Positions 577-21,073 of a DNA stretch of 41,823 nt are shown piece by piece. The notes below the pieces were generated by a model that ran no database searches, had not been told where the DNA came from, and was given only the letters and a program-made list of their open reading frames with translations. The DNA is from Elusimicrobiota bacterium (GTDB lineage: Bacteria > CG03 > SLGR01 > JAFGSA01). Numbering within the stretch: position 1 is the first letter of the stretch; each line of letters begins with the position of its first letter. The stretch is taken from contig JAFGSA010000066.1 in the NCBI GenBank assembly GCA_016934855.1, positions 1-41,823 of the forward strand. Reading direction: 5' to 3'. Made by a program: the position numbers and the translations under genes.

Positions 577-1050
577 ATGAAAGATATATCCCCTGCAAAG
601 GAAAAAAAGAAAATCATAGGTGTGATAGGCGGTGCCCAGGCTGATGAACATATGAGCGGGATCGCGTATGAACTGGGAAAAGAGATAGCCAGAAACGGGT
701 ATATACTTGTATGCGGCGGACTGGGCGGAGTCATGGAAGCGGCATGCAGGGGAGCGTATGAGGCAGGAGGAACGACGCTGGGAATACTTCCGGGAGCAGG
801 AAAAGACTCGGCTAACCCATATGTATCAATACCCGTAGTGACTGCCATGAGCCATGCGAGGAACGCAATTATTGTCAGAACGGCGGATATACTCGTCGCC
901 GTAGACGGGCGATACGGCACTTTATCAGAGATCGCTCTGGCCAAGGCCATAGGAAAGAGAGTTATTGGGCTTTATACATGGGAAGAGGTTCCCGGGGTGG
1001 AGCATGCCGGATCGGTGGAAGATGCCGTCGGGCTTATAAAAGAGTCTTGA
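577..1050 (+). CDS. LOG / TIGR00725-family Rossmann-fold protein (a small SLOG-superfamily protein, putative nucleotide-binding)
   Basis: 157 aa. Residues IIGVIGG.., LVCGGLGGVMEAA and a PGxGxxxE-like segment are typical of the short LOG/TIGR00725 family. Confidence 0.75.
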   Translation: MKDISPAKEKKKIIGVIGGAQADEHMSGIAYELGKEIARNGYILVCGGLGGVMEAACRGAYEAGGTTLGILPGAGKDSANPYVSIPVVTAMSHARNAIIVRTADILVAVDGRYGTLSEIALAKAIGKRVIGLYTWEEVPGVEHAGSVEDAVGLIKES

Positions 1051-1490
1051 GAGCGGTAATACAAAGAGTATCTGAAGCTTCGCTGACCAGCGGGGATTAT
1101 GCTGTCCGGATAGGCAGCGGGCTACTTGTCCTAGTAGCCGTATCGAAAGACGATACCGCGCGGGATGTCGATTATACAGTTGACAAGACGCTCAACCTCA
1201 GAATATTTTCCGACGAAAAAGGAAAGCTTAATCTATCGGTCAGGGATGTGTCGGGGGAAATACTCGCCGTATCTCAGTTCACGCTGTATGGCGACTCCAG
1301 GAAAGGCCGCCGGCCCAGTTTCGACAAGAGCGCCGACAGGGAAAAGGGGAAAGAATTCTTCGATATGTATGCGGATAAACTGAAAAGAGAGGGTATAAAA
1401 GTAGAAACAGGCCTGTTCGGAGAAGAGATGAAAGTCCGCCTTGTCAACGACGGCCCGGTTACGCTGATAATAGACAGCAATGTTTCTTGA
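1047..1490 (+). CDS. dtd: D-aminoacyl-tRNA deacylase
   Basis: The RAVIQRV N-terminus and the SQFTLY..D...G.RPSF motif identify it. The start is assigned to TTG at 1047, overlapping the upstream stop (TTGA); the ORF track began at a spurious upstream ATG. Confidence 0.8.
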   Translation: MRAVIQRVSEASLTSGDYAVRIGSGLLVLVAVSKDDTARDVDYTVDKTLNLRIFSDEKGKLNLSVRDVSGEILAVSQFTLYGDSRKGRRPSFDKSADREKGKEFFDMYADKLKREGIKVETGLFGEEMKVRLVNDGPVTLIIDSNVS

Positions 1491-3375
1491 AGCTTACGAA
1501 AAAAACAGCAGGCAGGTTACGCTGTATTTTTTTCTCCTGGTGGTTATAGCGGGCACTTTGTTCCATCTGTCTCTCATGCCTGATGTAAACGTGGATATAT
1601 CGAGGCTTGCCTATCTGCATTATCATTTCATCGAAGCATCCGCGGAGAACGTGAAATATGGCGCCGGTGCAGGGGATATAAGCGCCGTGATATTTAAGAA
1701 CTCGAAACCGGTGGTGACCATAGGCGGGCAGAGGATATTAAAACTCTCGTATGACGATTCCAGCGGAAAATACCTGGGCCGGTTTCCAGTCCCCTGGCGG
1801 GCGGCCGACGGCGTATACACAGTCAGGTATTTCAGCGGCGGAGAGATACTCAGGCATGAAGATGCGTTTATTGTCAAGTCGAGGATCCCTTCATATAAAT
1901 TCAGCGGTCCCCTGAAGATAATGGACCTGGAGAGCGTCAAGAGACTCAGCAGGTACAAGGTGACGACCCCATCGGGTAACGTCACCGGATACGAGGGTAT
2001 GTACGAATGGATAAAATATATCGGAGGGAACACTCTTTGGTATATAGCCGGACAGACCGCGTCCTACTCGAAAGGCGACCTGACCGAAGATCTCCCCTGG
2101 ATCGCGGGCAACGTGAATTCAATAGAAGAATTCTCCGCAAATACCGGACGTAACTCCATAAAATTCGGCGGCTGGATAGCCTGCTTCAGGTATTTCGGAA
2201 AAAGTGAGCTCAAACCGGCATGGTATAAGTACAGTTACAAATACATGGGGCCGAACGACAGGCTTAAAAGGTCCGGCGGGATATCCATACTGGATAACCG
2301 GAGGATAGAGGATGTCAGGGATCTGGCAGGACGGCTGAACGCTTCGGAGACAGTTGATTATATCGGGCTGGATTATATAAGACCCGCAGGCGGAGGACTG
2401 GAGCTGGTCGACGAGTTCATCGAATCCATGGATGTAGAAGAAATCCCCTCGGGCTGGAGCAGTTATACCCAGGAACAGCGCATGGAATGGCTCGGGGAGA
2501 TAGTGACCCGTACAAAAAACAGGGGTGTTCCGGTGATCGACAAATGGAACTGGTGGCGGGCGCACAGGATGTCGAAAATAATAAGATATATCAAGGAATC
2601 CGCCCAGATAAAGAAGCCGTTGTGGACATTTATCCTCAGCTGGGAGCTGGGGCACCAGCACGGGCAGGATCCCCTTATGTTCCAGGATGCCGGTGCCGAT
2701 ATAATCGCTGTGATGATGTACGAGACCGATGCGCCCAGATTAAACTACATGATAAAGAAATGGAAGGAATATCTCGAAGGCTTCAGAGTCAATCTTGCAG
2801 TCGGGAACCAGATAGACTGGCCTCTGCACCAGTATTGCGTGGAGCCCTCCGGCCCCGAAGAATATCACCGCAGGCTGTCACAAAGCATTTCATACCTGGG
2901 AGATAATGTAAAAGGTGTTTTTGTACACGATTTTTCAAGGGCAATGTGGGGGAGAAAAGGTCCTTATACATCTAAAGAGTGGCTTCTTTCCGCCGGAAAG
3001 GCGTTTACGCAGCTTGACAGGCATCCCGAAGTGAGGGTGGACATGCAGGCGGAAGGCAGGGTGAGGTCCGGAGCGTGGGATAAGCTCCGAGTGAAGGTCA
3101 GTAACGTCACAGGCAGCGATATAGAGCGTATAACAGTAGACATACCTGATGCAAGGGATATCGCGGTAAAGAAAAGCACTTATGAACTGGGCGGTCTGAA
3201 AGGTTTCGAGGCTAAGGATATAACCGTGGATTTCAGAATAACCGGCAGCCCTGATATGAAGATGGGCAGGTATATGCTCGCTTCCCGGGTGATAACCGGC
3301 AGGGACATATATATAGATACAGAATATATCAATACGGAAGGAGTCCCCCTGGATAGAGGTGTGAAGTACAGATGA
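1480..3375 (+). CDS. Membrane-anchored hypothetical protein of 631 aa, possibly with a glycoside-hydrolase-like TIM-barrel domain (DUF4015-like)
   Basis: The N-terminus carries a transmembrane helix (VTLYFFLLVVIAGTLF). The central DYIGLDYIRP motif recalls GHL/DUF4015 families. The domain call is weak. Confidence 0.55.
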   Translation: MFLEAYEKNSRQVTLYFFLLVVIAGTLFHLSLMPDVNVDISRLAYLHYHFIEASAENVKYGAGAGDISAVIFKNSKPVVTIGGQRILKLSYDDSSGKYLGRFPVPWRAADGVYTVRYFSGGEILRHEDAFIVKSRIPSYKFSGPLKIMDLESVKRLSRYKVTTPSGNVTGYEGMYEWIKYIGGNTLWYIAGQTASYSKGDLTEDLPWIAGNVNSIEEFSANTGRNSIKFGGWIACFRYFGKSELKPAWYKYSYKYMGPNDRLKRSGGISILDNRRIEDVRDLAGRLNASETVDYIGLDYIRPAGGGLELVDEFIESMDVEEIPSGWSSYTQEQRMEWLGEIVTRTKNRGVPVIDKWNWWRAHRMSKIIRYIKESAQIKKPLWTFILSWELGHQHGQDPLMFQDAGADIIAVMMYETDAPRLNYMIKKWKEYLEGFRVNLAVGNQIDWPLHQYCVEPSGPEEYHRRLSQSISYLGDNVKGVFVHDFSRAMWGRKGPYTSKEWLLSAGKAFTQLDRHPEVRVDMQAEGRVRSGAWDKLRVKVSNVTGSDIERITVDIPDARDIAVKKSTYELGGLKGFEAKDITVDFRITGSPDMKMGRYMLASRVITGRDIYIDTEYINTEGVPLDRGVKYR

Positions 3376-4868
3376 AGAAATATATTATAGTGCTGGGCAT
3401 GTTTACCGTGATGGCTTCATGTGCCGGAAGCTCTGATACGGGCAATGCCGGGACGAGGAAAGCGGCGGTAGCGGGGCAGTTCTATCCGGGAAATCCTGAC
3501 GTCCTCATGAAAGATGTCGATGCTTTCCTGGATACCGAAGTAAAAGAAGAACTCGGGGATGCGCATATAATGGGCATAATAGTGCCGCATGCCGGGTATA
3601 TGTATTCCGGCGCTACGGCGGGCCGGGTTTTTGCTTATTTGAAGAACAGGGGCTACGGTACAGTTATCCTTATGGGATCAAGTCATAACGTATACCTGGA
3701 CAAGCCTGTCACATGTTCGTTCGGCGATTGGGCGACACCCCTTGGAAAAGTTAAAGAAGATTATAAGCTAGTTGACGATATAGTAAAATATACAGGTATA
3801 TATATAAATAATAAAGTATTCGTGCCGGAGCATTCCCTGGAAGTTGAATTGCCTTTCCTGCAGAGGGTGCTGAAAGATGATTTTTCTATTGTCCCTATAC
3901 TTGTAAATGAGTTCAGGGAACAGAAACTCAGGGACTATGCCGCAGGGATATCCAGGGTGATAGGCCGGGGAAAAGGAATACTGATAGTGATGTCAACGGA
4001 TATGTCCCACTATTTTCCCGCCCGTACAGCAGCCGTCATGGATAAAAAGGTTTCCGATGCCCTCGTAAGATATGACCTGGAATCCCTTGAAAGGATAATG
4101 ACGGACAAATCCGGGCAGTTATGCGGCTGCGGCGCGGTTATGCTGGGTCTTATGACGCTCAGGAACCTGGGAGCCGACACGGTTGTGCAGGTAGATTATT
4201 CCCACTCGGGCGCGGCCACCGGAGACAACTCCAGGGTTGTCGGGTACGGGGCGTACGCAGTATATAAAAAAGAAGGAGTTGACGAATACGGACAGGAGGA
4301 AAAAATGGGATATACAAAAGAACAGAAGACAGAACTCCTGAAGCTTGCGAGAAATACGATACAGACATATGTCAAAACAGGAAGGACACTGCCGGCGGTA
4401 ACGGAAGACAAAGAACTCAGAGAACGCCGCGGGGTATTCGTAACGCTTCATAAAAAAGGGCAGCTCAGGGGCTGTATAGGGAACATATTCCCCGTTAACG
4501 AGCTGTATACCGCGGTCAGGGACATGGCTATAGAGGCTGCTGTGCATGATCCGCGGTTTTATCCTGTGACGGAAGACGAGCTCGATAAGATAGACATAGA
4601 AATATCCGTACTTACGGTGCCGGAAGAAGTAGATTCGCCGGACGAGATAGTAATGGGCCGGGACGGTGTCATAGTAAAGAAAGGGTTCAGGCAGGGTGTT
4701 TACCTTCCTCAGGTCGCTGATGAGACAGGCTGGAGCAGGGATGAGTTTTTAAGCAGCCTGTGCCATTCAAAAGCCGGGTTGCCGCCGGATGCATGGCAAC
4801 AGAAGGATACTACCCTTATGACGTTTCAGGCTGAGGTTTTTAACGAAAAGGAGCTGGGAATAAAATGA
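3372..4868 (+). CDS. Fusion of a Memo-like protein (AmmeMemoRadiSam system protein B) and an AMMECR1 domain (system protein A), with an N-terminal lipoprotein-type signal peptide
   Basis: AGQFYPG and IVPHAGYMYSG are Memo hallmarks. RGVFVTLHKKGQLRGCIGN is the AMMECR1 motif. The N-terminus MKKYIIVLGMFTVMASC contains a lipobox-like MASC. AGAGGTG lies upstream of the ATG. Confidence 0.8.
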   Translation: MKKYIIVLGMFTVMASCAGSSDTGNAGTRKAAVAGQFYPGNPDVLMKDVDAFLDTEVKEELGDAHIMGIIVPHAGYMYSGATAGRVFAYLKNRGYGTVILMGSSHNVYLDKPVTCSFGDWATPLGKVKEDYKLVDDIVKYTGIYINNKVFVPEHSLEVELPFLQRVLKDDFSIVPILVNEFREQKLRDYAAGISRVIGRGKGILIVMSTDMSHYFPARTAAVMDKKVSDALVRYDLESLERIMTDKSGQLCGCGAVMLGLMTLRNLGADTVVQVDYSHSGAATGDNSRVVGYGAYAVYKKEGVDEYGQEEKMGYTKEQKTELLKLARNTIQTYVKTGRTLPAVTEDKELRERRGVFVTLHKKGQLRGCIGNIFPVNELYTAVRDMAIEAAVHDPRFYPVTEDELDKIDIEISVLTVPEEVDSPDEIVMGRDGVIVKKGFRQGVYLPQVADETGWSRDEFLSSLCHSKAGLPPDAWQQKDTTLMTFQAEVFNEKELGIK

Positions 4869-5206
4869 AAAAAACAATATGCGGGATTATTATATTCATG
4901 TTTTTTTGCGGATGCAGCAGTATGCCTAAAAGAAACCTGGCGACCGAATCAGGTATCATCGCCGCAAATTTCAATATTGAAGAAGAAGAAGTTGTATCAT
5001 TGAGGGAAAAGGGGTTCGATACAGGGGAGATAGTGAAGATACTTATAATATCAGAGGGATCCTATCTCGGGCAGGGAGAAATACTCATGATGGTAGAAGA
5101 GGGCAAATCTTTCGAAGAAATAGGAAAAAAAGCCGGTATCGATACAGAGACACTTCAGCAGAGGTCGGATAAGATAGAGAAAAACCTCGCTAAATACTCA
5201 AGATAA
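4865..5206 (+). CDS. Small hypothetical lipoprotein of 113 aa
   Basis: The N-terminus MKKTICGIIIFMFFCGCSS has a lipobox FCGC. An internally repeated acidic helix-like segment is present. Its ATG overlaps the upstream stop (ATGA). Confidence 0.5.
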   Translation: MKKTICGIIIFMFFCGCSSMPKRNLATESGIIAANFNIEEEEVVSLREKGFDTGEIVKILIISEGSYLGQGEILMMVEEGKSFEEIGKKAGIDTETLQQRSDKIEKNLAKYSR

Positions 5207-7331
5207 ACACTGTTCCCAGATTGAATATTCCCAGCACGGGAAGCAGTTCTATGGTGCCTGTTACGGGCAGAAGCAGTATGGACCCCAGGCATGCCAGGAT
5301 CAACCCCGATATTACATAACCCGAAAGGGCCTCCGGGCGGTTATCGTCTATGCTCAGGTATGCCTTTATCTTGATGATCATGCTCCCCGCAAGAAGGAAA
5401 CCGCCCGCGAAAGAGAGAACTGTTATCATCGCAAGCGAAGGTAAATTCATCTGAGTCTCAAACAGCGTCGGCAGTATAATAAGGAGAAAGCCCGCAAACA
5501 TGGAAAACATGCGTATCAGAGAGAGGTAGGTATTGCTGCTTTTTTTCCTGAAATAGAACGCTGAAGCGGCGATTCCCAGGCACAGGAAAAGGAATACGAA
5601 CGAAATATCGGAGTATATCCTCCCGTAGTATGTCTGAAGCAGGACGACAATATTATATGTGAAAAGCCCTATCACAAGGGACGAAAGAAGGAGAGTGTGC
5701 TTGAGCTTAAGGGCCAGTTCCTTCTTAGACAGCGATCTTACCAGCAGTATATTGAGGGCAAGAATGAAACTGTATACCAGGATAGGATTTATCCTGTCGG
5801 TCATCCTTATTATAAGGTTGGGGAATATCCCGAAGTTCAGCACCAGCTGATTGAATGAATATTTCAGAGAAGCGGGTTTGCTGTCCATATTCACGGGGGC
5901 GTGTTTTATATCAAGCTGCTTTCTGACATTAGCCCCGGCGTCTATCTTGAATTTTAAGATGGAGGGTGAAAAATAAGAGGGAGGAGTATCCATAACGTTT
6001 ATGAATTCGGCAAGGGCGAGGTCGGATGTAGTGAAGTTTCGGCTGTGCGATGCCAGAATATTAGATTCGTCTCCGTACAACTCGAGAGTATTGGGAAAAA
6101 CCTTTTTTAAAGTGTTGTAGGCGATGGCGGTAAGCAGGGCCCAGTTCCAGCCGATATCAGGGCCGCCGGTTTTCAATGTAATGGCTATCATGGAATTATC
6201 GGACAGCACTGCTTTGACACTATGATAGAACTCTAAAGTGTAATACCTGTTAAGGAAGATATTGACCGGATTCGGAAGGGAAATAAAAACGATATCGAAA
6301 GTGTGCCTGTTCTTGATCTTTTTGATGAAAGAGATCGGGTCGGAATTGGACAGTATCCTGAGCCTGGAATAGTCCTTGGAATACAGATTGACCGGTACCA
6401 CATCAGGGAAAAGAGAGAAGATGTCCGGCGCGGGATCGGCCCAGTAAATATTTTTTATATCGGGATACCTCAGTATCTCATCTATCATCTCGGTCCATTC
6501 ACCTATCACCAGCACGCTTTCGGCCCAGGGATACTGCAGTAAGGCCGTATGCACTATTTCCTGGACGTTACGGGTGTTCGGATACTTGAATAACTTCGAA
6601 TGGTTCAGGGAGCTTATGTAATCATTGTTCTTCTTCAATACGGACAGCTCTCCGTACGGGGTTTTCTTCGTCTTTACCAGTTGCGTCTTGTATTCCCTTG
6701 TGAAAGAGCGGAACCGGCTGCTTATCCTGGCCGGTATAGAACTGAACAGCAGCGTGATGAAAACGACAGATAAAAACCAGTATTTCACCTTGGGAAGGGT
6801 CTCTATTGATACCAGGGCGAGGATCATAAGGCCGATAATGGATATAGTAAGAACTGTAATGAACGTGTCGGCATGCCACAAGACCGCAATATCCGAAACG
6901 AAATAGATCACGGCTCCGAGCAGTATGTGTTTTGTATATAGTGATTCGTCTGCCATATAGCCCATTACGATACCCGCAGAAAAAATGAGAGGAAAAAGTA
7001 TCGTCAGGGGATAAACCGTAACTGCAAACCACGGAAGAAAACTTAGAAAGGAAAGACCCATGAGGGTTCTTCCTCCCGTAAGAAAAAATGAAAAAACCGG
7101 CAGATAGAAAATGGATATGCATAGAAAAAGGGTGAAAGTCTTTAGTTTTCCCAGTATGCGGCTGAACTCAGGGTAGGCAATAAACCCTATGAGAAATTCC
7201 AGGCAGATTATTATCCCGATAACGGGGATGTGAAATATCGGCTGCTGTGACAGAACGTAGAATTCCCTGAACAGAGTCGTGAAAACAGCAGAATAGAAAA
7301 CCCCGAGAAGACACAGGGGTATGATTTGCAT
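5190..7331 (-). CDS. COG4262-type polytopic membrane protein with a central spermidine-synthase-like (PABS fold) domain whose catalytic motifs look degenerate
   Basis: About 8 transmembrane helices at each end. The middle region aligns to PABS (FDIVFISLPNP..RYYTLEFYHSV versus YDVIIVDSTDP..LFT.EFY), but GGGDGG is replaced by GEWTEM and DSTDP by SLPNP. Confidence 0.65.
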   Translation of the reverse strand: MQIIPLCLLGVFYSAVFTTLFREFYVLSQQPIFHIPVIGIIICLEFLIGFIAYPEFSRILGKLKTFTLFLCISIFYLPVFSFFLTGGRTLMGLSFLSFLPWFAVTVYPLTILFPLIFSAGIVMGYMADESLYTKHILLGAVIYFVSDIAVLWHADTFITVLTISIIGLMILALVSIETLPKVKYWFLSVVFITLLFSSIPARISSRFRSFTREYKTQLVKTKKTPYGELSVLKKNNDYISSLNHSKLFKYPNTRNVQEIVHTALLQYPWAESVLVIGEWTEMIDEILRYPDIKNIYWADPAPDIFSLFPDVVPVNLYSKDYSRLRILSNSDPISFIKKIKNRHTFDIVFISLPNPVNIFLNRYYTLEFYHSVKAVLSDNSMIAITLKTGGPDIGWNWALLTAIAYNTLKKVFPNTLELYGDESNILASHSRNFTTSDLALAEFINVMDTPPSYFSPSILKFKIDAGANVRKQLDIKHAPVNMDSKPASLKYSFNQLVLNFGIFPNLIIRMTDRINPILVYSFILALNILLVRSLSKKELALKLKHTLLLSSLVIGLFTYNIVVLLQTYYGRIYSDISFVFLFLCLGIAASAFYFRKKSSNTYLSLIRMFSMFAGFLLIILPTLFETQMNLPSLAMITVLSFAGGFLLAGSMIIKIKAYLSIDDNRPEALSGYVISGLILACLGSILLLPVTGTIELLPVLGIFNLGTVFILSI

Positions 7332-7386: not shown

Positions 7387-7575
7387 CTATTCTATCGTTA
7401 TGGCGGATACGGGACAAACGTCTTCGCAGTTGCCGCAAAGAGTACAGTCACCTGGTCTGGCAAGAACCGATACTCCGTTTTCCATTTCGAGCGCGCCAGT
7501 AGGGCATTCGTCTATACATATACTGCATCCCGTGCAAACATCCGCATCGATTTTTACTTTTTTGGAATCTGTCAT
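7387..7575 (-). CDS. 2x[4Fe-4S] ferredoxin (62 aa)
   Basis: Two CxxCxxCxxxCP clusters (CTGCSICIDECP and CTLCGNCEDVCP). It lies 55 bp upstream of the COG4262 gene on the same strand. Confidence 0.8.
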   Translation of the reverse strand: MTDSKKVKIDADVCTGCSICIDECPTGALEMENGVSVLARPGDCTLCGNCEDVCPVSAITIE

Positions 7576-7721: not shown

Positions 7722-8684
7722 ATGGGAGCATTTCTACTTTTTATATTGTTGATCGCAGCTATAATTTTTATAACATCACTGATGAAAACAGCGCCCGGCG
7801 CTGGTCAGGAAAAAATTATAGATATAAAGAGCGGATATACGAAGAAAAAGCTGCAGCAGGCGGCAGTGATCATCCTCCTGCTTTTCGGACTTGTGACGCT
7901 TCTTAAGGGAATAGTAATAGTCCCGGCAGGGCACAGGTATGTAGTATTCAATATATTCAGGGGGGTGCTTGACAAGGAACTGGACGAAGGTCTCCATGTG
8001 CTGCTGCCGTATGTAAATTCTACTGTATCGTACGAAGTAAGGTTACAGGAATATACGATGTCCAGCGTGCGCGGAGAAGGAAGGGTTTCGGAGCCTGACA
8101 GCCTGTGGTCTCCGACGGAAGAAGGACTGCAGGTGGGAATAGACCTGACAGTGCTGTATAGAATAGATCCGGATAAGGTTTCGGACCTGCACGAGAAGAT
8201 AGGGAAGAACTTCGAGTCCAAGATAATAAGGCCCGCGGTGAGATCGATCGTGAGGCATAATATATCCGAGCATAAGATAATGGAGGTGTATTCTAAAAGC
8301 AGGAAGGAGATAGAAGATAAGGTGTTCTCGGACCTGGAAGAACAGATGAAGAAAAACTATATCATTGTCGAAGGCGTAAAGCTCAGGGATGTCATATTCA
8401 CGGATAAATTCGCCGAATCAATAGAGCAGAAACAGGTGGCCCAGCAGGAAATGGAGCGATGGGAATACGTTAAAAAACAGAGAGAAAAAGAGGCAGATGC
8501 CAGAATAATAGAGGCTAAAGGCAAGGCCGAGGCTATGAGGATAATCGCCCAGCAGTTGAGGGCGAATCCCGACATAATCAAATATAATTATGTCGAAAAG
8601 CTTTCGGACGATGTGCAGGTAATAATAACGGATCAGTCAACGATAATGGATCTCAAGGGAATACTGAAAGATTCAGGTAAATAG
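7722..8684 (+). CDS. SPFH / band-7 (prohibitin/HflC-like) membrane protein
   Basis: An N-terminal transmembrane helix, an SPFH core and a C-terminal coiled coil (EQKQVAQQEMERWEYVKKQREKEAD). The start is assigned to the ATG at 7722, 5 nt after GGAGGAGG; the ORF track started at TTG 7707. Confidence 0.8.
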   Translation: MGAFLLFILLIAAIIFITSLMKTAPGAGQEKIIDIKSGYTKKKLQQAAVIILLLFGLVTLLKGIVIVPAGHRYVVFNIFRGVLDKELDEGLHVLLPYVNSTVSYEVRLQEYTMSSVRGEGRVSEPDSLWSPTEEGLQVGIDLTVLYRIDPDKVSDLHEKIGKNFESKIIRPAVRSIVRHNISEHKIMEVYSKSRKEIEDKVFSDLEEQMKKNYIIVEGVKLRDVIFTDKFAESIEQKQVAQQEMERWEYVKKQREKEADARIIEAKGKAEAMRIIAQQLRANPDIIKYNYVEKLSDDVQVIITDQSTIMDLKGILKDSGK

Positions 8685-8686
8685 CA

Positions 8687-9949
8687 TTGTGGGATATTAA
8701 CAGCGAGAATATAGAACGGGCCGTACTGATAGGGGTGGAGTACCCCAGGTCCAGGGTCCCGGCCGAAGAGAGCCTGTCAGAGCTTTATCAGCTCTCCAAG
8801 ACCGCCGGCGCCGCCGTGGCGGGTAAATTCCTGCAGCACCGCGCGCAGCCGCATCCGGCCAGTTACATAGGCAAAGGGAAGGTCCAGGAAATCAAGGCGT
8901 TTATCCTGGGGAACAAGGTCAACCTGGTAATAGTGGATGACGATATTACTCCTACCCAGGAAAGAAACCTTGAAGAGGAGTTCGGATGCAAGGTCGTTGA
9001 CAGGACGCGTCTTATACTTGATATATTCGCGCTTCATGCGTCATCAAGTGTCGGGAAACTGCAGGTAGAACTGGCGCAGCTGGAATATTACCTGCCCAGG
9101 CTGAAGAATATATGGACGGAGTTTTCCAGGCTGGGAGGGGGAATAGGCACGAGGGGTCCCGGAGAGAAGAAGATAGAGATAGACAGGCGGATAATAAGTG
9201 ACAGGATAGCTTCAATCAAAAGCAGACTCGATAAGATAAAAATCCAGAGGCGGGACCGCCGGAAACAGCGGAAACGCATGTTTAAGAAAAATATATCGCT
9301 CGTCGGCTATACGAATTCCGGAAAGTCAACGCTTATGAACGTTTTGACAGGTGCCGGGGTAGGGGTGGAGAACAAGCTGTTCTCTACGCTGTCACCTACC
9401 ACGAGAAGACTCGATTGCGGCAAATACGAAGTTCTGATAACGGATACAGTGGGGTTTATAAGGAAGCTTCCGCATAATGTCATAGAGGCTTTCATGGCTA
9501 CCCTGGAAGAAGTCCAGGAAGCGGATCTGCTCATCCATGTAGTTGATATATCCCTGGAGAATTTCAGGCACCAGGTGGAAGCCGTGGAAAACGTGCTTGG
9601 CGAACTGAAAGTGATGGATAAGCCCATGATAAAAGTATATAACAAGATAGATAAAAAAGGTCTTGAACCCGGCAGAAACGAGGGCGCGGTTCCGACTATA
9701 TCCATATCAGCACTCACCGGGAGCGGCATGGAAGAGCTTAAAAAAGAGATAGAAGAGCGCCTGGATAAGAGTATGGTCACGGCACAGCTCAAAATACCGC
9801 AGGCGAGGCAGGATATAATAAATTCTGTATATAAGAACATGCATGTTTATAACCGCGAATATTCGGGGAATTATGTCATCCTGACATGCCAGTCCGACGC
9901 AAATATCCTGAACATGTACAGAAAATATATGGCGAGGGATGCCGCGTGA
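8687..9949 (+). CDS. hflX: GTPase HflX
   Basis: G1 motif GYTNSGKST, the DTVGFI motif, and HflX N-terminal domains. Only a TTG start is possible, because an in-frame stop lies 9 nt upstream. Confidence 0.85.
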   Translation: MWDINSENIERAVLIGVEYPRSRVPAEESLSELYQLSKTAGAAVAGKFLQHRAQPHPASYIGKGKVQEIKAFILGNKVNLVIVDDDITPTQERNLEEEFGCKVVDRTRLILDIFALHASSSVGKLQVELAQLEYYLPRLKNIWTEFSRLGGGIGTRGPGEKKIEIDRRIISDRIASIKSRLDKIKIQRRDRRKQRKRMFKKNISLVGYTNSGKSTLMNVLTGAGVGVENKLFSTLSPTTRRLDCGKYEVLITDTVGFIRKLPHNVIEAFMATLEEVQEADLLIHVVDISLENFRHQVEAVENVLGELKVMDKPMIKVYNKIDKKGLEPGRNEGAVPTISISALTGSGMEELKKEIEERLDKSMVTAQLKIPQARQDIINSVYKNMHVYNREYSGNYVILTCQSDANILNMYRKYMARDAA

Positions 9950-10111
9950 GGATTCCTGACTGTATTACCTTTAGGGGGCTCATGCCGGTGATCGTGGCGC
10001 AGGTACCCTTCCTGGGTTTAAGAATCCCTTTTTATTATCCTGCGGCGGTCGTGCCGGGCTTATCGGGTCTGCAGTACATGGTAAAAGCGCTGTCGGGTAT
10101 GGGGGCGGATA

Positions 10112-11452
10112 ATGGTTAAAACCGTTGCGATAGTCGGAAGGCCGAATGTGGGCAAATCAACGCTTTTCAATACCCTGATCAACAGAAAGGAAGCTCTTAC
10201 ATCTCCAAATCCGGGATTGACCAGGGACCGGCATTATTCCTATTTTTCACCGGACGGGGAGAACGTTTATCTTCTTATAGACACGGGCGGTATTATTTTG
10301 GATGATAAAAGGTCAATCGTCGAGAACGTCAACCTCCAGGTAGAGCTGGCAGTGGAACAGGCGGACCTTCTTCTCTTCGTCGTGGATATAAGGGAAGGGC
10401 TTCTGCCGCTCGATGAAAGGATATGCGATAGGCTGCGAAAATCATCAAAGCCTATTATAGTAGCGGCAAACAAGGCAGATACTCCCGACAAAGACATACT
10501 CATTTCGGATTTTTACGGGTTGGGGCTGGATAACGTCATCGCGCTGTCTGCCCAGCACAAGAGAAACATATACGGGCTTATTTCCGGTATTCGGCGTATA
10601 ATACCGGAATCCAGGCAGGAGAAGAGGGGCCGTTGCCCAAGATTGTGTGTTGTAGGGAGGCCCAATGTAGGTAAATCTACCCTTGTCAACAGGATAGCCG
10701 GCGAAGAAAGAGTCATAGTGGATTCCGAGCCCGGGACGACCAGGAATCCTGCAAAATGCCATGTCAGGATAAAGGGCAGAGACTGGGAACTGGTGGATAT
10801 GGCAGGATTGTGGAGAAAGAGCAGGGGTAAGGAATTGGAAGAGATAATCAGCATGATTGCGGCGCGGCGGGAGCTGGAGAAGGCGGATGTCTGTATATTC
10901 CTCATGGACCTCACGGAACCCCTGACGTTTCAGGATAAAAGGATAGCCGGCTGGATAATAGAAGCCGGCACTTCCGTAGTGATCGCGGGGAACAAGGCAG
11001 ACCTGGTAGAAGACAGCCCGGAGATAAGAAGCGCATACGGTTCGGGGCTGTATGCCGAGATGCCTTTCATGAGCTTTGCGCCTTTCCTGGTCATCTCGGC
11101 AAAGACAGGCAATGCGGTCGAGGAGCTGTATGACGAGCTGCAGCGCGTTTATGAAAGCTCTCAAAAAAAGATAAAACAGGAGGAACTCGACATGTTCCTG
11201 GCAAAAATGCTGTCAAAACGGCCGCCGCCGGAATCTGCAAATGAAAGGCCAAGGGTAATCAGGCTTGTTCAGAAAAAAGTGAATCCGCCCGTATTCAGCC
11301 TGGTTATAGATCATTACAGACTTGACAAAATTCCGCAACACTGGAAAAATTATGTAAGAAACTTCATCTATGAGGAGTTCAGGTATTACGGGGTGCCGGT
11401 CGTTATAAATTATATTAAATACAAAAAGAGCAGAGAAGATGCAGGAATTTGA
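10112..11452 (+). CDS. der: Ribosome-biogenesis GTPase Der (EngA)
   Basis: Two tandem GTPase domains (GRPNVGKST twice) and a KH-like C-terminal domain. Confidence 0.9.
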   Translation: MVKTVAIVGRPNVGKSTLFNTLINRKEALTSPNPGLTRDRHYSYFSPDGENVYLLIDTGGIILDDKRSIVENVNLQVELAVEQADLLLFVVDIREGLLPLDERICDRLRKSSKPIIVAANKADTPDKDILISDFYGLGLDNVIALSAQHKRNIYGLISGIRRIIPESRQEKRGRCPRLCVVGRPNVGKSTLVNRIAGEERVIVDSEPGTTRNPAKCHVRIKGRDWELVDMAGLWRKSRGKELEEIISMIAARRELEKADVCIFLMDLTEPLTFQDKRIAGWIIEAGTSVVIAGNKADLVEDSPEIRSAYGSGLYAEMPFMSFAPFLVISAKTGNAVEELYDELQRVYESSQKKIKQEELDMFLAKMLSKRPPPESANERPRVIRLVQKKVNPPVFSLVIDHYRLDKIPQHWKNYVRNFIYEEFRYYGVPVVINYIKYKKSREDAGI

Positions 11453-16330: not shown

Positions 16331-17827
16331 ATGAAAACAAGGTTACTTCTGGCAGGGGCAATATGTTCTTTTCTGATCTTGCTCTCCGGCACAACGGCAA
16401 ATGCGGCAACCTGGTACCCGCTAACGACAAACGGTTTCGGTGATGAATACAATGAGACTGTGTACCCGGGCGGGGTATTCAACGATATGATATTCATAGG
16501 GACAAACCATCCGTACGGAGGCGAAATCTGGTATTCCTCGGAAGGTTCCAGTTTCAGCCTTTCTACGGAAGGCGGTATGGGAGATTCGGCCAACATGACA
16601 GTGCAGGTGATGCCGGAAGCCCCCTGGGGGGATCTGTTCGCCCACACCTATAACAACAACGGCGCGGAGATATGGAAGAGTGAAACGGGCCTGCCGGGCT
16701 CGTGGACCCAGGTGCAGGTGAACGGGAGCAGCTACAACGGTCTCGACGGAGGCACTGACAATGTCGCGCTGTGGGGATGGTCTAACGATGACGGCACCGT
16801 ATTCATGGGCACCGAGAACAACGGTACGAACGGATGCGAAGTGTGGTATACTCCGGACGGCATAAACTGGACGAGGAATGCCACTGGCAGCGTTGATTTC
16901 GGATGCAATTCTCACACTATCGCAATACCCGGCCCCGTATTCGGCACCCGTATTTTCTGCGGTACTTTCAGATCATATAACTACGGTTCCAGTCTTTTCT
17001 GCAGGGACGAACTTGTCGGCGCTACTGTTTATTCAAGCGACTGGACCACCAAGGATACCGGCGGTTTCGGGGATACCAATAACGACCAGGTCATCCTGTC
17101 CCCTCAGAGTTTCGGCGATCAGCTTTACGCGGGAACCATGAACGATGATACGGGCTGCGAAATATGGCGGACTGAGGACGGGGAAACATGGGAACAGGTA
17201 AACGAGGACGGATTCGGAGACCCCAATAACTGGGAGATAACATCGTTCTGCATACCCGGTGACGGATACATATATGCCGCGACGAGCAACAGCAGCACCG
17301 GCGGCGAGATATGGCGTTCTGAGGACGGGGAGACCTGGGAAAAAGTGGAAGGTACTGAAGGCGGTTTCGGAGACGCGCATAACACGTCCGTATATCTTTC
17401 CATGGGGACATATAACGATCATATGTACGCCGGCACCCATAACTATAACGGCGGGGGGCATCTATATATGATGTCCATTGAGGGAGAACCCCCGGTAGAT
17501 CCGAATACAAAGGCCGAGGGTCAGGATGAAGAAATACAGGCGACAAAAGCCGGCGAAATAGTCGTCGTAGGGTCGACAGAGCGCGAAGGCGTTATTAATC
17601 CTGACAAGGGTGATCCTATAGTAGTTGATTTCAGGGGCAAGAAACCCGGTAAATATACCCTGAGAATATTCACGATGCTCGGCGAACTCGTATATGACGA
17701 GACAAAGAGCTCGATAAGCGGCGGAAGATTTTCCTGGATACCCAAGAACCTGGCTTCAGGTATATACATAGCGCACGTAGAGGGTCCCGGATTAAACATC
17801 CAGAAGAAAATAGCGATAATTAGATAA
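16331..17827 (+). CDS. Secreted beta-propeller-repeat protein (BNR / ELWxxDGT-like repeats G.EIW.S.DGETW) with a C-terminal T9SS-type or FlgD-Ig-like sorting domain
   Basis: Signal peptide ending ANA-AT. At least 6 repeats (GGEIWYSSEG, GAEIWKSETG, GCEVWYTPDG, GCEIWRTEDGETW, GGEIWRSEDGETW). C-terminal ~80 aa reads GKYTLRIF...SGIYIAHVEG...KKIAIIR. Confidence 0.65.
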   Translation: MKTRLLLAGAICSFLILLSGTTANAATWYPLTTNGFGDEYNETVYPGGVFNDMIFIGTNHPYGGEIWYSSEGSSFSLSTEGGMGDSANMTVQVMPEAPWGDLFAHTYNNNGAEIWKSETGLPGSWTQVQVNGSSYNGLDGGTDNVALWGWSNDDGTVFMGTENNGTNGCEVWYTPDGINWTRNATGSVDFGCNSHTIAIPGPVFGTRIFCGTFRSYNYGSSLFCRDELVGATVYSSDWTTKDTGGFGDTNNDQVILSPQSFGDQLYAGTMNDDTGCEIWRTEDGETWEQVNEDGFGDPNNWEITSFCIPGDGYIYAATSNSSTGGEIWRSEDGETWEKVEGTEGGFGDAHNTSVYLSMGTYNDHMYAGTHNYNGGGHLYMMSIEGEPPVDPNTKAEGQDEEIQATKAGEIVVVGSTEREGVINPDKGDPIVVDFRGKKPGKYTLRIFTMLGELVYDETKSSISGGRFSWIPKNLASGIYIAHVEGPGLNIQKKIAIIR

Positions 17828-18913: not shown

Positions 18914-21073
18914 CTACTTTGTTTTCAGTTCCCAGACCCCGTTCCAGTCGTCGGCAGGCGGTTCGGATTTATACTTTTTGCATCTTGAGAGATAGGTGAC
19001 GGAAGGCCCGTCTTCTGGCAGGATTTTTAACGCTTCTTCGAAAAGCCTTATGCCTTCGTCCCATTTGCGGGTCTTGTAGCATTTCAATCCTTCACTGTAA
19101 AGGGCAAGGACTTTTTCCTTGTCGGGAGAAAGGCTGCCTTTTACGGCCATAACTTCATATACGTGAACGGGTTTCTTCTTGCCTTTCACCCGCAGAGCGT
19201 CAAGCTCCCGGAATTCGATATCGTTTTCCACCTGGGCCTTAGTGAACTCGCTCATCATTATACAGGTGCCGTATTCCTTGTTGGCAGATTCCAGCCGGGC
19301 GCCCAGGTTTACCGAATCTCCCATGACAGTGTAGTCCATCCTCGTCTTCGATCCCATGTTCCCGACTATCATCGGCCCGGTGTTTATCCCGATGCGCATG
19401 CTCAGCGGGGGACGGCCTTCTTCTTTCCATTTTACCTGCAACTGCCCGAGCTTTTTCTGGCAGTCCAGGGAAGCTTTGCAGCATCTCAGCGCGTGGTCAT
19501 GCTGGTCCACCGGAGCGTTCCAGAACGCCATTATGGCGTCGCCCTCATACTTGTCCAGCGTACCTTCGTAATCGAATATTATATGCGTCATGGCTTCCAG
19601 GTATTCGTTTATGAGATGGACAAGGTCTTCCGGCTCGAGCGATTCGGATATAGTAGTGAAGCCCGAAAGGTCAGAGAAATACACGGTCATCTCCCTGCGT
19701 TCGCCGCCGAGAGTCAGGGAAGAAGGGTCTTTCAGTATCTTGGTGACTACCGACGGCGTTATATACGTGGAGAACACGTTCTTTATCCATTTTTTCTCCT
19801 TCTCTTCGGTGGCGTACTTATAGAAGACCAGGAACAGGTCTGTGAGGAATATGACCATGAGGGGGTAGACTATTATGATGCTCAGGCCGTGCTTAATAAA
19901 CAGATAATAATTGACGACAAGGTATAGTATGAAGATCATGAATGTATAGATTATGCTCCTGACGGGAGTGAGCCTCGGCAGAAGAAAACCCATGAAGATC
20001 CCCAGGAATATCAATAAAAGGATATTCTGGGACCTTGTAGTGTGGCTGATGAAGCTGCCTGTCAGGATGTTGTCGAATACTGTGGCGTGAACTCCCACGA
20101 TGGGATCCACGTTTGAGAAAGGAGTGGGCCCGACATCAAAAGACCCTGTGGCTGCCATGCCTATAAAGACGACCTTATCCTTGAAATCCACAAGGTCTAT
20201 GACGGGTTTATCCCCTCTTTTTAACTGCTCGTATGCCTGTATAATATCGGAGTATGAATGACTCCTGAAGGACTGTATGGAGCCGCTGTAATTAGCGGTG
20301 ATCTGTATATAATCGTTGACCGGTATCTTTATCGGTTTCCTGGTCTGCCCGGGGAAATTGATTATTACATATTTTTCCGGGATCACTTCTATGTCTTCAA
20401 GCCGCGCGCCCAGGTAATCGCAGGCCATTTTGAACGAGATAAGCGGGTATATCCTGTGCATGTACCATATGAACAGTAGAGCTCTCCTGTAAACACCGTC
20501 TTCGTCGGGGGCGCCGTTCACAAAACCGGATCCTTTTACCACGCCGAGTATGCCTCCGAACGGCAGGGTGACATCGTAACATTCGAAATAGGTATCCGGG
20601 TCTTCGTTGGGAATACCGAAGCTGTGAAAGAGCGGATTGAGCGACTGCGGTTTTTCCGTCGCCATGGGGAAGTAAAAGGGGAAATATACGTTCCCGGCTC
20701 TCCGGGCGGAATCTATGAGTTTCTTGTCGTCCTGGGGGAACAGGTTATCGGGTTCGGGAAAAAGGACATCGAAAAATACCGCGTATGCGCCGTATTCGGA
20801 AAGTATGTCTATCAGCTTTGCATGTATATTCCTTCTCCAGGGCCATTTCCCGAATGCGCCGAGGCTCGCGTCGTCTATAGCGACGATCCTGATAGGTGAC
20901 TCCGCTTCCTTCTGCCCCCTGAACTTGAACCTGAGGTCATACAGGTTGAGTTCGACTCTTTCCAGTATATTATACTGGTAGAATATTATCAGCAAAACGG
21001 TTACAAGAAGGCTGATTATCACGCCGGGCAGAAACCTGCGGAGCGTATCGTGAGTCTTTTTCATGATTTGCAA
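18914..21073 (-). CDS. CHASE2-domain membrane adenylate/guanylate cyclase with a C-terminal TPR-like tail
   Basis: N-terminal CHASE2 (IVAIDDASLG..WPWRR), transmembrane helices, a class III cyclase domain (FSDLSGFT...GDAIMAFW...GINTGPMIVGNMGS), and a TPR-like C-terminus. Confidence 0.85.
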   Translation of the reverse strand: MQIMKKTHDTLRRFLPGVIISLLVTVLLIIFYQYNILERVELNLYDLRFKFRGQKEAESPIRIVAIDDASLGAFGKWPWRRNIHAKLIDILSEYGAYAVFFDVLFPEPDNLFPQDDKKLIDSARRAGNVYFPFYFPMATEKPQSLNPLFHSFGIPNEDPDTYFECYDVTLPFGGILGVVKGSGFVNGAPDEDGVYRRALLFIWYMHRIYPLISFKMACDYLGARLEDIEVIPEKYVIINFPGQTRKPIKIPVNDYIQITANYSGSIQSFRSHSYSDIIQAYEQLKRGDKPVIDLVDFKDKVVFIGMAATGSFDVGPTPFSNVDPIVGVHATVFDNILTGSFISHTTRSQNILLLIFLGIFMGFLLPRLTPVRSIIYTFMIFILYLVVNYYLFIKHGLSIIIVYPLMVIFLTDLFLVFYKYATEEKEKKWIKNVFSTYITPSVVTKILKDPSSLTLGGERREMTVYFSDLSGFTTISESLEPEDLVHLINEYLEAMTHIIFDYEGTLDKYEGDAIMAFWNAPVDQHDHALRCCKASLDCQKKLGQLQVKWKEEGRPPLSMRIGINTGPMIVGNMGSKTRMDYTVMGDSVNLGARLESANKEYGTCIMMSEFTKAQVENDIEFRELDALRVKGKKKPVHVYEVMAVKGSLSPDKEKVLALYSEGLKCYKTRKWDEGIRLFEEALKILPEDGPSVTYLSRCKKYKSEPPADDWNGVWELKTK

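Follow-up and report, generated by a model that had tools for sequence, protein, structure and literature searches.

The conservation of Memo and AMMECR1 extends from archaea to humans, where MEMO1 is involved in cell migration and cancer and AMMECR1 in AMME syndrome, and to our knowledge neither has an established biochemical function. In AmmeMemoRadiSam systems the two (AmrB and AmrA, respectively) are combined with a radical S-adenosylmethionine (radical-SAM) enzyme, AmrS. The present analysis concerns an AmrB-AmrA fusion gene found in a metagenome-assembled genome (MAG) of an Elusimicrobiota bacterium (assembly GCA_016934855.1), on contig JAFGSA010000066.1, positions 1 to 41,823; this stretch of 41,823 nucleotides, which makes up the entire contig, is called the window. 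On balance, the fusion is probably a periplasm-facing, lipid-anchored member of a membrane-spanning AmmeMemoRadiSam variant.

Fusions of Memo, regarded as a 'ring-opening dioxygenase', with AMMECR1 were described in 2007 by Balaji and Aravind together with their radical-SAM neighbourhood, and RNA base modification was predicted as their function (PMC2034487). The window protein is the same fusion and carries the same RGChG and DxRa motifs, whereas RNA is a cytoplasmic substrate, which the exported clade described below does not fit. Thus, the Memo-AMMECR1 fusion and its radical-SAM neighbourhood (PMC2034487) are already known, as is the NCBI protein name. The halves of the fusion are also homologous to human MEMO1 (3bcz, 7m8h) and to the archaeal proteins PH0010, MM0484 and ST0229 (1vaj, 1zq7, 1wsc), with conserved metal-site and Cys motifs, whereas these proteins are separate, soluble, intracellular and signal-less. 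Burroughs et al. (JBC, 2019) reportedly extended the known contexts to isoprenoid modification. In the literature searched, outside which lies Burroughs et al. 2019 (a study that may touch on membrane contexts), nothing was found on export signals in the majority of fusions or on membrane partners matching those reported here.

Compared with AmmeMemoRadiSam systems as they are known, the window protein exceeds the curated cut-offs by a wide margin in both its AmrB and its AmrA half, and its genome also encodes AmrS. In contrast, A and B are fused behind a lipoprotein signal, AmrS is located on another contig, and the window adds a 14-transmembrane (TM) spermidine-synthase-like (SpeE-like) protein, a ferredoxin, a glycoside hydrolase (GH)-like protein and a small lipoprotein.

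The fusion gene and its export signal

The gene and its parts are as follows:

3372..4868, + strand: AmrB (Memo)-AmrA (AMMECR1) fusion gene, 498 aa, MBN2407889.1 (open reading frame (ORF), Pfam and NCBIfam domains)
3355..3361, + strand: Shine-Dalgarno (SD)-like AGAGGTG, 10 nt 5' of the ATG (read from the sequence)
3372..3422, + strand: predicted signal peptide, residues 1-16, with n-region MKK, h-region YIIVLGMFTVMA and lipobox M-A-S followed by C17 (rule match)
3423..3452, + strand: flexible tether from the lipid anchor to Memo, residues 18-27 (AGSSDTGNAG), predicted local distance difference test (pLDDT) score <50 at residues 19-24
3453..4271, + strand: Memo/AmrB domain, residues 28-300, conserved metal-site residues H73, H105, D210, H213 and C251
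4272..4316, + strand: inter-domain linker, residues 301-315, pLDDT <50 at residues 303-311
4317..4853, + strand: AMMECR1/AmrA domain, residues 316-494, motifs RGC368IG and D393-x-R395-F396

The product is 100% identical to MBN2407889.1, which is named 'AmmeMemoRadiSam system protein B' by NCBI. Pfam places Memo at residues 31-294 (1e-56) and AMMECR1 at 323-490 (2.6e-60), and the curated models score 249.9 bits for AmrB (TIGR04336, cut-off 26, residues 29-297) and 193.4 bits for AmrA (TIGR04335, cut-off 99), in agreement with the identity given in the original prediction. In a search of PDB sequences, the C-terminal half matched PH0010 (1vaj, 2.4e-40) and the N-terminal half human MEMO1 (3bcz/7m8h, 2.5e-16). 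In an alignment of 29 diverse homologues, H73, H105, D210, H213 and C251 of Memo were invariant or nearly so, and we take them to correspond to the metal site of human MEMO1. G367, C368, G370, D393, R395 and F396 of the AMMECR1 half were invariant in the same alignment; its motifs had been defined as RGChG and DxRa by Balaji and Aravind (PMC2034487). The gene encodes an AmrB-AmrA fusion with the Memo metal-site residues and the AMMECR1 RGCxG/DxRF motifs intact.

The AlphaFold2 (AF2) model of the fusion (pLDDT 91) consists of a helix at residues 2-16, a disordered tether, Memo at 28-300, a linker of low confidence at 303-311 and AMMECR1 at 316-491. Its predicted template-modelling (pTM) score is 0.60, so the orientation of the two domains relative to each other is undefined. 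The helix at residues 2-16 is detached and has low pLDDT.

The statement that the two proteins are normally separate and cytoplasmic is incomplete. The fusion has more than 7,800 cluster representatives among its relatives at E<=1e-20, the best 120 listed all contain both Pfam domains, and such fusions were already noted in 2007 (PMC2034487).

The fusion is translated from M1, because its ATG overlaps the stop of the upstream 631-aa gene (ATGA, 3372-3375), an SD-like sequence lies upstream, as had been noted, at the distance given above, and the orthologues in loci L002 and L085 lack any further in-frame ATG ahead of the Memo domain. A second ATGA (4865-4868) joins the fusion stop to the start of a 113-aa gene, and the cagATGA/cagGTGA junction is common to the window and the syntenic orthologues L001 and L002. 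It is extremely unlikely that the true start is M10 or M14 and that the gene encodes an ordinary cytoplasmic AmrB-AmrA fusion. Both in-frame ATG codons do lie 5' of the Memo domain, and the NCBI Prokaryotic Genome Annotation Pipeline (PGAP) trimmed the signal of the 113-aa gene, which suggests that start calls in this region are fallible. However, no SD-like sequence precedes M10 or M14 in the window sequence, PGAP and the Logan gene call both use M1, and the pattern of K/R, hydrophobic stretch and Cys is kept in orthologues at 46-61% identity. The argument that a later start would delete the conserved AGxFYP is false for M10 and M14, which both precede AGQFYPG (residues 34-40), and applies only to M46.

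The N-terminus MKKYIIVLGMFTVMASC satisfies a lipobox rule of the PS51257 type, as the original prediction had proposed from its appearance. The rule, modelled on PROSITE PS51257, requires K/R in residues 1-7, an uncharged hydrophobic run and [LIVMFWSTAG]2-[LIVMFYSTAGCQ]-[AGS]-C with the Cys at positions 15-35; the corresponding elements are K2 and K3, VLGMFT at residues 7-12 and V13-M14-A15-S16-C17. The hydrophobic run comprises 12 residues. Among 27 window proteins tested, the rule fits two, the fusion and the downstream 113-aa protein. The n-region is MKK and lacks the (S/T)RRxFLK motif of the twin-arginine translocation (Tat) pathway. Taken together, these rules and the conservation of the pattern make it very probable that the lipoprotein export signal of the fusion is genuine, with Cys17 predicted to be lipidated and to stand first in the mature protein.

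Export signals among relatives of the fusion

The best 120 database homologues (40-61% identity) come from Elusimicrobiota, Omnitrophota, Ratteibacteria, Edwardsbacteria and other groups. A hydrophobic N-terminus stands ahead of the conserved R-x-P-x-x-AG-x-FYP in 110 of them and is absent in 10. A lipobox was found in 32 (31 plus P0052, which is also Tat-like), a Tat-like RRxFL(S) in 9 further ones and another h-region in 69. Scanning one genome per GTDB species yielded 80 fusion loci from Omnitrophota, Planctomycetota, Desulfobacterota, Bacteroidota, Zixibacteria, Latescibacteria, Ignavibacteria, Leptospira and others, and the DNA 5' of each Memo domain gave the same signal-rich picture. In a neighbour-joining tree of mature sequences, 165 of 185 full-length fusions were signal-positive and the Fitch root state was signal-positive with about 14 changes, in a sample biased towards relatives of the window protein.

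Across these 165 relatives N-terminal hydrophobicity is conserved as a property and not as a sequence. Thus, when orthologous fusions were checked for the same signal peptide, the hydrophobic N-terminus recurred and the sequence itself did not, being replaced by signals of three kinds. The occurrence of three mechanistically different types (lipobox, Sec-type and Tat-like), as predicted from the N-termini, on one protein is the strongest evidence for selected export. The window fusion belongs to a large multi-phylum clade in which most members, and by inference their ancestor, bear a predicted export signal, and it is a typical member of this clade, not an exception. The idea of an extracytoplasmic, lipid-anchored Memo-AMMECR1 module therefore survives as a prediction and extends to the relatives, whereas its description as unexpected does not, since 165 of the 185 sampled homologues bear a signal.

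The full RRxFL motif, (S/F/L)RRxFL(S/T), was seen in 10 of the 120 homologues (P0021, P0022, P0027, P0035, P0036, P0038, P0039, P0045, P0046 and P0052).

An uncleaved N-terminal anchor, holding both domains on the cytoplasmic face beside AmrS, would reconcile cytoplasmic SAM chemistry with membrane association, and the 69 homologues with a hydrophobic N-terminus and no recognisable lipobox or Tat motif would be compatible with it. This arrangement is nevertheless very unlikely, given that the positive charges of MKK before the h-region predict an N-in/C-out topology, that a lipobox Cys is present in the window fusion and 32 homologues and RRxFL in 10, that the h-regions of 12-15 residues have the length of a signal rather than of a TM helix, and that the operon neighbours are extracytoplasmic.

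AmrS in the same genome

No radical-SAM gene is present in the window, as had been noted: no CxxxCxxC or variant motif occurs in any real ORF, and a hidden Markov model of 120 AmrS sequences, run against all six-frame segments, gave a best E of 0.9. The MAG encodes AmrS at a second locus, and the conclusion that the fusion has no radical-SAM partner is an artefact of viewing one contig. The AmrS protein (P0152, MBN2407189.1) was found by a search with the AmrS of locus L085, to which it is 68% identical, and scores 385.9 bits on TIGR04337 (cut-off 220). It is encoded on a 23,414-bp contig, and both P0152 and the window fusion occur in sequencing run SRR13394437. A mini-ORF adjoining P0152 is annotated as 'hypothetical protein JXJ19_05780' and the window genes are JXJ19_09345-09360; because of the shared JXJ19 locus-tag prefix, AmrS was assigned to the MAG of the window. 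None of the best 120 fusion homologues is located on the AmrS contig, which leaves the window fusion as the sole close AmrB/AmrA candidate identified for P0152.

The three genes are not clustered in the genome of the window and are clustered in L003 and L085. In L003 the coding regions of a 350-aa TIGR04337 protein (395 bits) and a lipobox-bearing fusion overlap at the start of the latter. In L085 (Elusimicrobiota), whose fusion is 50% identical to that of the window, AmrS (407 bits) belongs to the cluster, with the gene order fusion, TatA, 1165-aa membrane protein, 96-aa ORF, AmrS, 50-aa ORF; the TatA gene lies directly 3' of the fusion. AmrS is present in the fetched flanks of 31 of 59 signal-positive loci, mostly within 160 bp (<=160 bp) and on the same strand, and was not seen in those of the other 28, many of the loci being short. 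The notion of an orphan module is contradicted by the amrS gene elsewhere in the MAG, which the original prediction had itself named as evidence that would weaken it, by the L085 orthologue and by AmrS adjoining about half of the signal-bearing fusions. In the syntenic loci L001, L002 and L086, no AmrS was found within ±10 kb of the fusion.

Tetranucleotide similarity between the AmrS contig and the window (r = 0.82, GC 0.52 vs 0.48) was too weak to assign a genome. A radical-SAM gene located 10 kb 3' of the fusion in L002 gave only a weak HpnJ-like match and was rejected as AmrS; this gene (L002:19044-19473) has an apparent CX4CX2C motif (GCSSDNCTFCG) and no counterpart in the window. P0002, the closest homologue of the fusion, is not a paralogue from the same sample, as it comes from a different run (ERR10503155).

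Neighbouring genes and membrane partners

The following genes adjoin the fusion in the window:

1480..3375, + strand: 631-aa membrane-anchored glycoside-hydrolase-like protein, JXJ19_09345 (TM helix, AF2 and Foldseek)
4865..5206, + strand: 113-aa small lipoprotein (lipobox rule), its start overlapping the fusion stop
5190..7331, - strand: 713-aa polytopic membrane protein, JXJ19_09360, with 7 TM helices, a spermidine-synthase-like loop and 7 TM helices, convergent with the operon
7387..7575, - strand: 62-aa 2x[4Fe-4S] ferredoxin with two CxxCxxCxxxCP motifs, directly downstream of the 713-aa gene

The 631-aa protein has no Pfam or NCBIfam match and 193 cluster representatives at E<=1e-3 among 1.84 billion proteins. 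Its AF2 model (pLDDT 90.9, pTM 0.89) shows a TM helix at residues 2-31 followed by an α/β barrel-like core between two β-sandwiches, so that the model appears to combine a TIM-barrel fold with flanking β-sandwich domains. The best Foldseek matches were GH5, GH13 and GH2 enzymes (5e-12 to 1e-9, with global TM-scores of 0.25-0.33), and one homologue has a sub-threshold GHL10 match. No significant match came from single-sequence and profile searches of PDB sequences, which produced just arrestin-like β-sandwich noise (E~0.02); the comparison of folds alone was informative. The gene is syntenic in L001 and L002 and is a lineage-specific operon partner.

In the 113-aa protein the lipobox Cys and the motif NL[AS]T..G[IV]IAA.F are conserved in 5 orthologues. 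The NCBI call of this gene (JXJ19_09355, MBN2407890.1) is 94 aa long, starting from M20, and drops the lipoprotein signal. Both lineage-specific partners, the 631-aa and 113-aa proteins, occur in the window, L001 and L002 and partly in L086 and L089. The TM helix of the former, the lipobox of the latter and the two ATGA overlaps bear out the earlier view of the flanks as translationally coupled genes for envelope proteins.

The 713-aa protein matches Pfam Spermine_synth (1.5e-7) and PRK03612 (4e-18), and its loop is rich in K/R. It alone among the window partners turns up repeatedly next to fusions of different phyla: 19-23 loci, belonging to at least 6 phyla, have a relative adjoining the fusion, the groups being Bacteroidota, Latescibacteria, Omnitrophota, Phycisphaerae, Thermodesulfobacteriota, Leptospira and Elusimicrobiota. 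Distant relatives carry the NCBI name 'fused MFS/spermidine synthase'. The ferredoxin, annotated by NCBI as '4Fe-4S binding protein', is syntenic in L001, L002 and L086.

A second type of membrane partner is a CcdA/DsbD_TM protein, whose gene follows the fusion in 12-13 loci; that of L003 has two 'PC' motifs. Proteins of the 713-aa or DsbD_TM type adjoin 27 of 59 signal-positive and 0 of 12 signal-negative fusions (Fisher p = 0.002, uncorrected for phylogeny). In a variant of the 713-aa type, the 7TM, SpeE-like, 7TM protein is extended by an RnfG/NosR-type FMN_bind domain and a NapH/NosR-type Fer4_5 domain, as seen in L085:5376-8873 (1165 aa) and P0144 (1189 aa), an architecture for which no description was found in the literature searched. 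In the L085 protein seven TM helices separate the SpeE-like and FMN_bind loops, which, by crude hydropathy, puts them on opposite sides of the membrane. The NosR-like module was considered as a general feature and rejected as lineage-specific. Compared with the known NosR/NapH/RnfG and CcdA/DsbD conduits, FMN_bind plus Fer4_5 (L085) and DsbD_TM (12-13 loci) likewise adjoin signal-bearing fusions, whereas the window has none of these and instead has the SpeE-like membrane protein and the 62-aa ferredoxin.

In the subclade of the window, within Elusimicrobiota, GxGxxG of the SpeE-like domain is replaced by G-(E/G)-W-x-(E/D), which is one residue shorter, and the domain is without the acidic residue that follows β2 in other members of the family (VE(L/I)(D/N)P). 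At L003:7883-8932, a DUF362 protein with 2x[4Fe-4S] is encoded directly 5' of AmrS; together with the ferredoxin of the window, this protein hints at a dedicated low-potential electron donor.

The conserved and translationally coupled triad of the 631-aa protein, fusion and 113-aa protein leads to a rather different explanation, close to that of the original prediction, in which the fusion would act on an envelope glycan or glycolipid within a GH-like operon, independently of AmrS, and the AmrS of the MAG would serve another function. The 41.8-kb contig and the ±10-kb surroundings in L001, L002 and L086 contain no AmrS, the AmrS locus of the MAG has its own paralogue of the 713-aa protein, the cofactor motifs of the window copy are degenerate, and the flanks of 28 of 59 signal-positive loci lack AmrS. 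On the other hand, AmrS is retained in the same MAG, the window fusion is the sole close candidate for P0152 among the best 120 homologues, the 50%-identical L085 orthologue is clustered with AmrS, and absence from the flanks is weak evidence as many loci are short. An AmrS-independent envelope enzyme is, on these grounds, unlikely.

Mini-proteins flanking AmrS and possible substrates

Pairs of small ORFs flank AmrS (L085:8858-9146 and 10109-10259; L087:2559-2702, which is JXJ19_05780 of the window's MAG; L022:7426-7627 and 8649-8796). The protein encoded 5' of AmrS is TM-anchored and ends with ...KEA(L/K)YY.., and the one encoded 3' of AmrS has 47-50 aa, a Tat or Tat-like leader (RREFLK, TRRNFIK, TRSEFLK) and the ending KEA(D/K)(F/Y)YK(K/R)...G. 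The L087 FMN_bind protein ends with KESMFYRK. A search for the motif in 1.26 Mb in 6 frames found 5 places only. These mini-proteins may be substrate or docking peptides.

Another possibility is that the fusion itself is modified by AmrS before export, for instance at the AMMECR1 Cys or at the Memo site, and then works alone in the periplasm. Anaerobic sulfatase-maturing enzymes (anSME) provide a precedent, as they modify Sec-exported sulfatases in the cytoplasm. By analogy, a signal-bearing protein would in both cases be linked genetically to a radical-SAM enzyme of the cytoplasm, whereas the homology of anSME to AmrS is limited to the radical-SAM core and the fusion lacks a target motif of the formylglycine type. 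Secondary matches relate AmrS to protein-acting glycyl-radical/pyruvate formate-lyase activases, the AmrS and fusion genes are tightly coupled (gaps of 3-160 bp or overlaps), a triple fusion in cis exists in L059, and the subset with Tat-like signals together with the TatA of L085 suggests export after folding or modification in the cytoplasm. Against this stand the lack of an identified target motif in the fusion, the KK-containing, Sec-type signal of the window protein, the archaeal systems, whose A and B proteins are separate and cytoplasmic and for which no logic of export is needed, and the mini-proteins, which offer an alternative substrate. Such a maturation role of AmrS would seem improbable.

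The triple fusion (L059:8975-11380) is a single ORF encoding AmrS-AmrB-AmrA. It has no hydrophobic segment between AmrS and Memo and is presumably cytoplasmic.

A probable membrane-spanning AmmeMemoRadiSam variant

The reading preferred here is that of a periplasm-facing, lipid-anchored fusion within a membrane-spanning AmmeMemoRadiSam variant. The evidence shows or strongly supports export, membership of the clade and an AmrS in the genome; we infer the cooperation of the proteins and the type of substrate. After Sec export and processing by Lgt and Lsp, the fusion would be tethered through Cys17 to the periplasm-facing membrane, where it would work with the 631-aa GH-like protein, the small lipoprotein and the 14-TM spermidine-synthase-like protein. 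The SAM-dependent radical step would stay in the cytoplasm with AmrS, fed by ferredoxin, and the Memo (metal) and AMMECR1 (Cys-thiol) steps would take place on the outer face of the membrane. The substrate would then be embedded in the membrane or exported, either linked to a lipid or glycan or consisting of a small peptide, and would not be a cytoplasmic RNA. In related lineages reducing power might cross the membrane via CcdA/DsbD_TM proteins or the NosR/RnfG-like FMN_bind and Fer4_5 extension. AMMECR1 is the top anaerobe-indicator Pfam family, present in 3.4% of aerobes and 50.7% of anaerobes (PMC13386939), which argues against an O2-dependent dioxygenase chemistry for the Memo half.

Several points weigh against this interpretation. 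Radical-SAM chemistry cannot take place in the periplasm, and the cooperation of AmrS with an exported fusion is unexplained. The L059 triple fusion and the ~11% of relatives without a signal indicate that a single, presumably cytoplasmic, compartment can suffice for the three domains, and the functional link between the fusion and AmrS loci of the MAG is itself inferred. The association counts are uncorrected for phylogeny, and the homologue sample is biased to relatives of the window protein. In the window subclade, the SpeE-like domain of the 713-aa protein keeps NR[FY]YT but neither the Gly-rich loop nor the acidic residue of β2, and may be non-catalytic, judging by these residues; the FMN_bind/Fer4_5 extension was found by tblastn only in L085 and L087, and otherwise in P0144. 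Met at position -3 of the lipobox is less common than Leu, Val or Ile, and a generic h-region rule gives false positives, flagging two Rossmann-fold N-termini in the window, which the lipobox rule does not.

A more specific version, which we regard as possible though doubtful, joins these observations into a large, unrecognised cross-membrane branch of AmmeMemoRadiSam. In the cytoplasm AmrS, with ferredoxin, would first modify either a small exported protein or a molecule bound to the membrane, and the periplasmic fusion would finish the chemistry, helped by the 14-TM SpeE-like protein and, in some lineages, by CcdA- or NosR-like conduits; the KEAx[FY]Y[KR] mini-proteins of Elusimicrobiota and Omnitrophota would be substrates or docking partners. 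If so, a Tyr-containing peptide, and not RNA, would be the substrate class of Memo and AMMECR1. More generally, if most fusions of the clade are exported and yet remain linked genetically to a radical-SAM enzyme in the cytoplasm and to polytopic membrane partners, whatever they act on has to be accessible from outside the membrane, and the search for it would narrow to lipids, envelope glycans and exported peptides. Compact expressible clusters are available for this purpose, for example that of L085 (fusion, TatA, SpeE/FMN/FeS protein, mini-protein, AmrS, mini-protein).

Other genes in the window

Two overlapping ORFs (577..1490) precede the operon on the strand of the fusion and are probably housekeeping passengers:

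577-1050, + strand: SLOG/LDcluster4 protein (PF18306, 4.3e-43)
978-1490, + strand: D-Tyr-tRNA deacylase-like longest ORF (synteny with PF02580 genes in L001 and L002; neighbour-gene cluster)

Further downstream, a 498-aa protein (16331-17827) has a signal-like N-terminus and a sub-threshold match to Por_Secre_tail, the sorting domain of the type IX secretion system (E = 8e-4). Two other genes appear to be ordinary and unrelated to the fusion: a 982-aa secreted GH3 enzyme with F5/8-type-C, PA14 and Fn3-like domains (31760-34708, - strand) and a 719-aa CHASE2-adenylate/guanylate cyclase (18914-21073, - strand).

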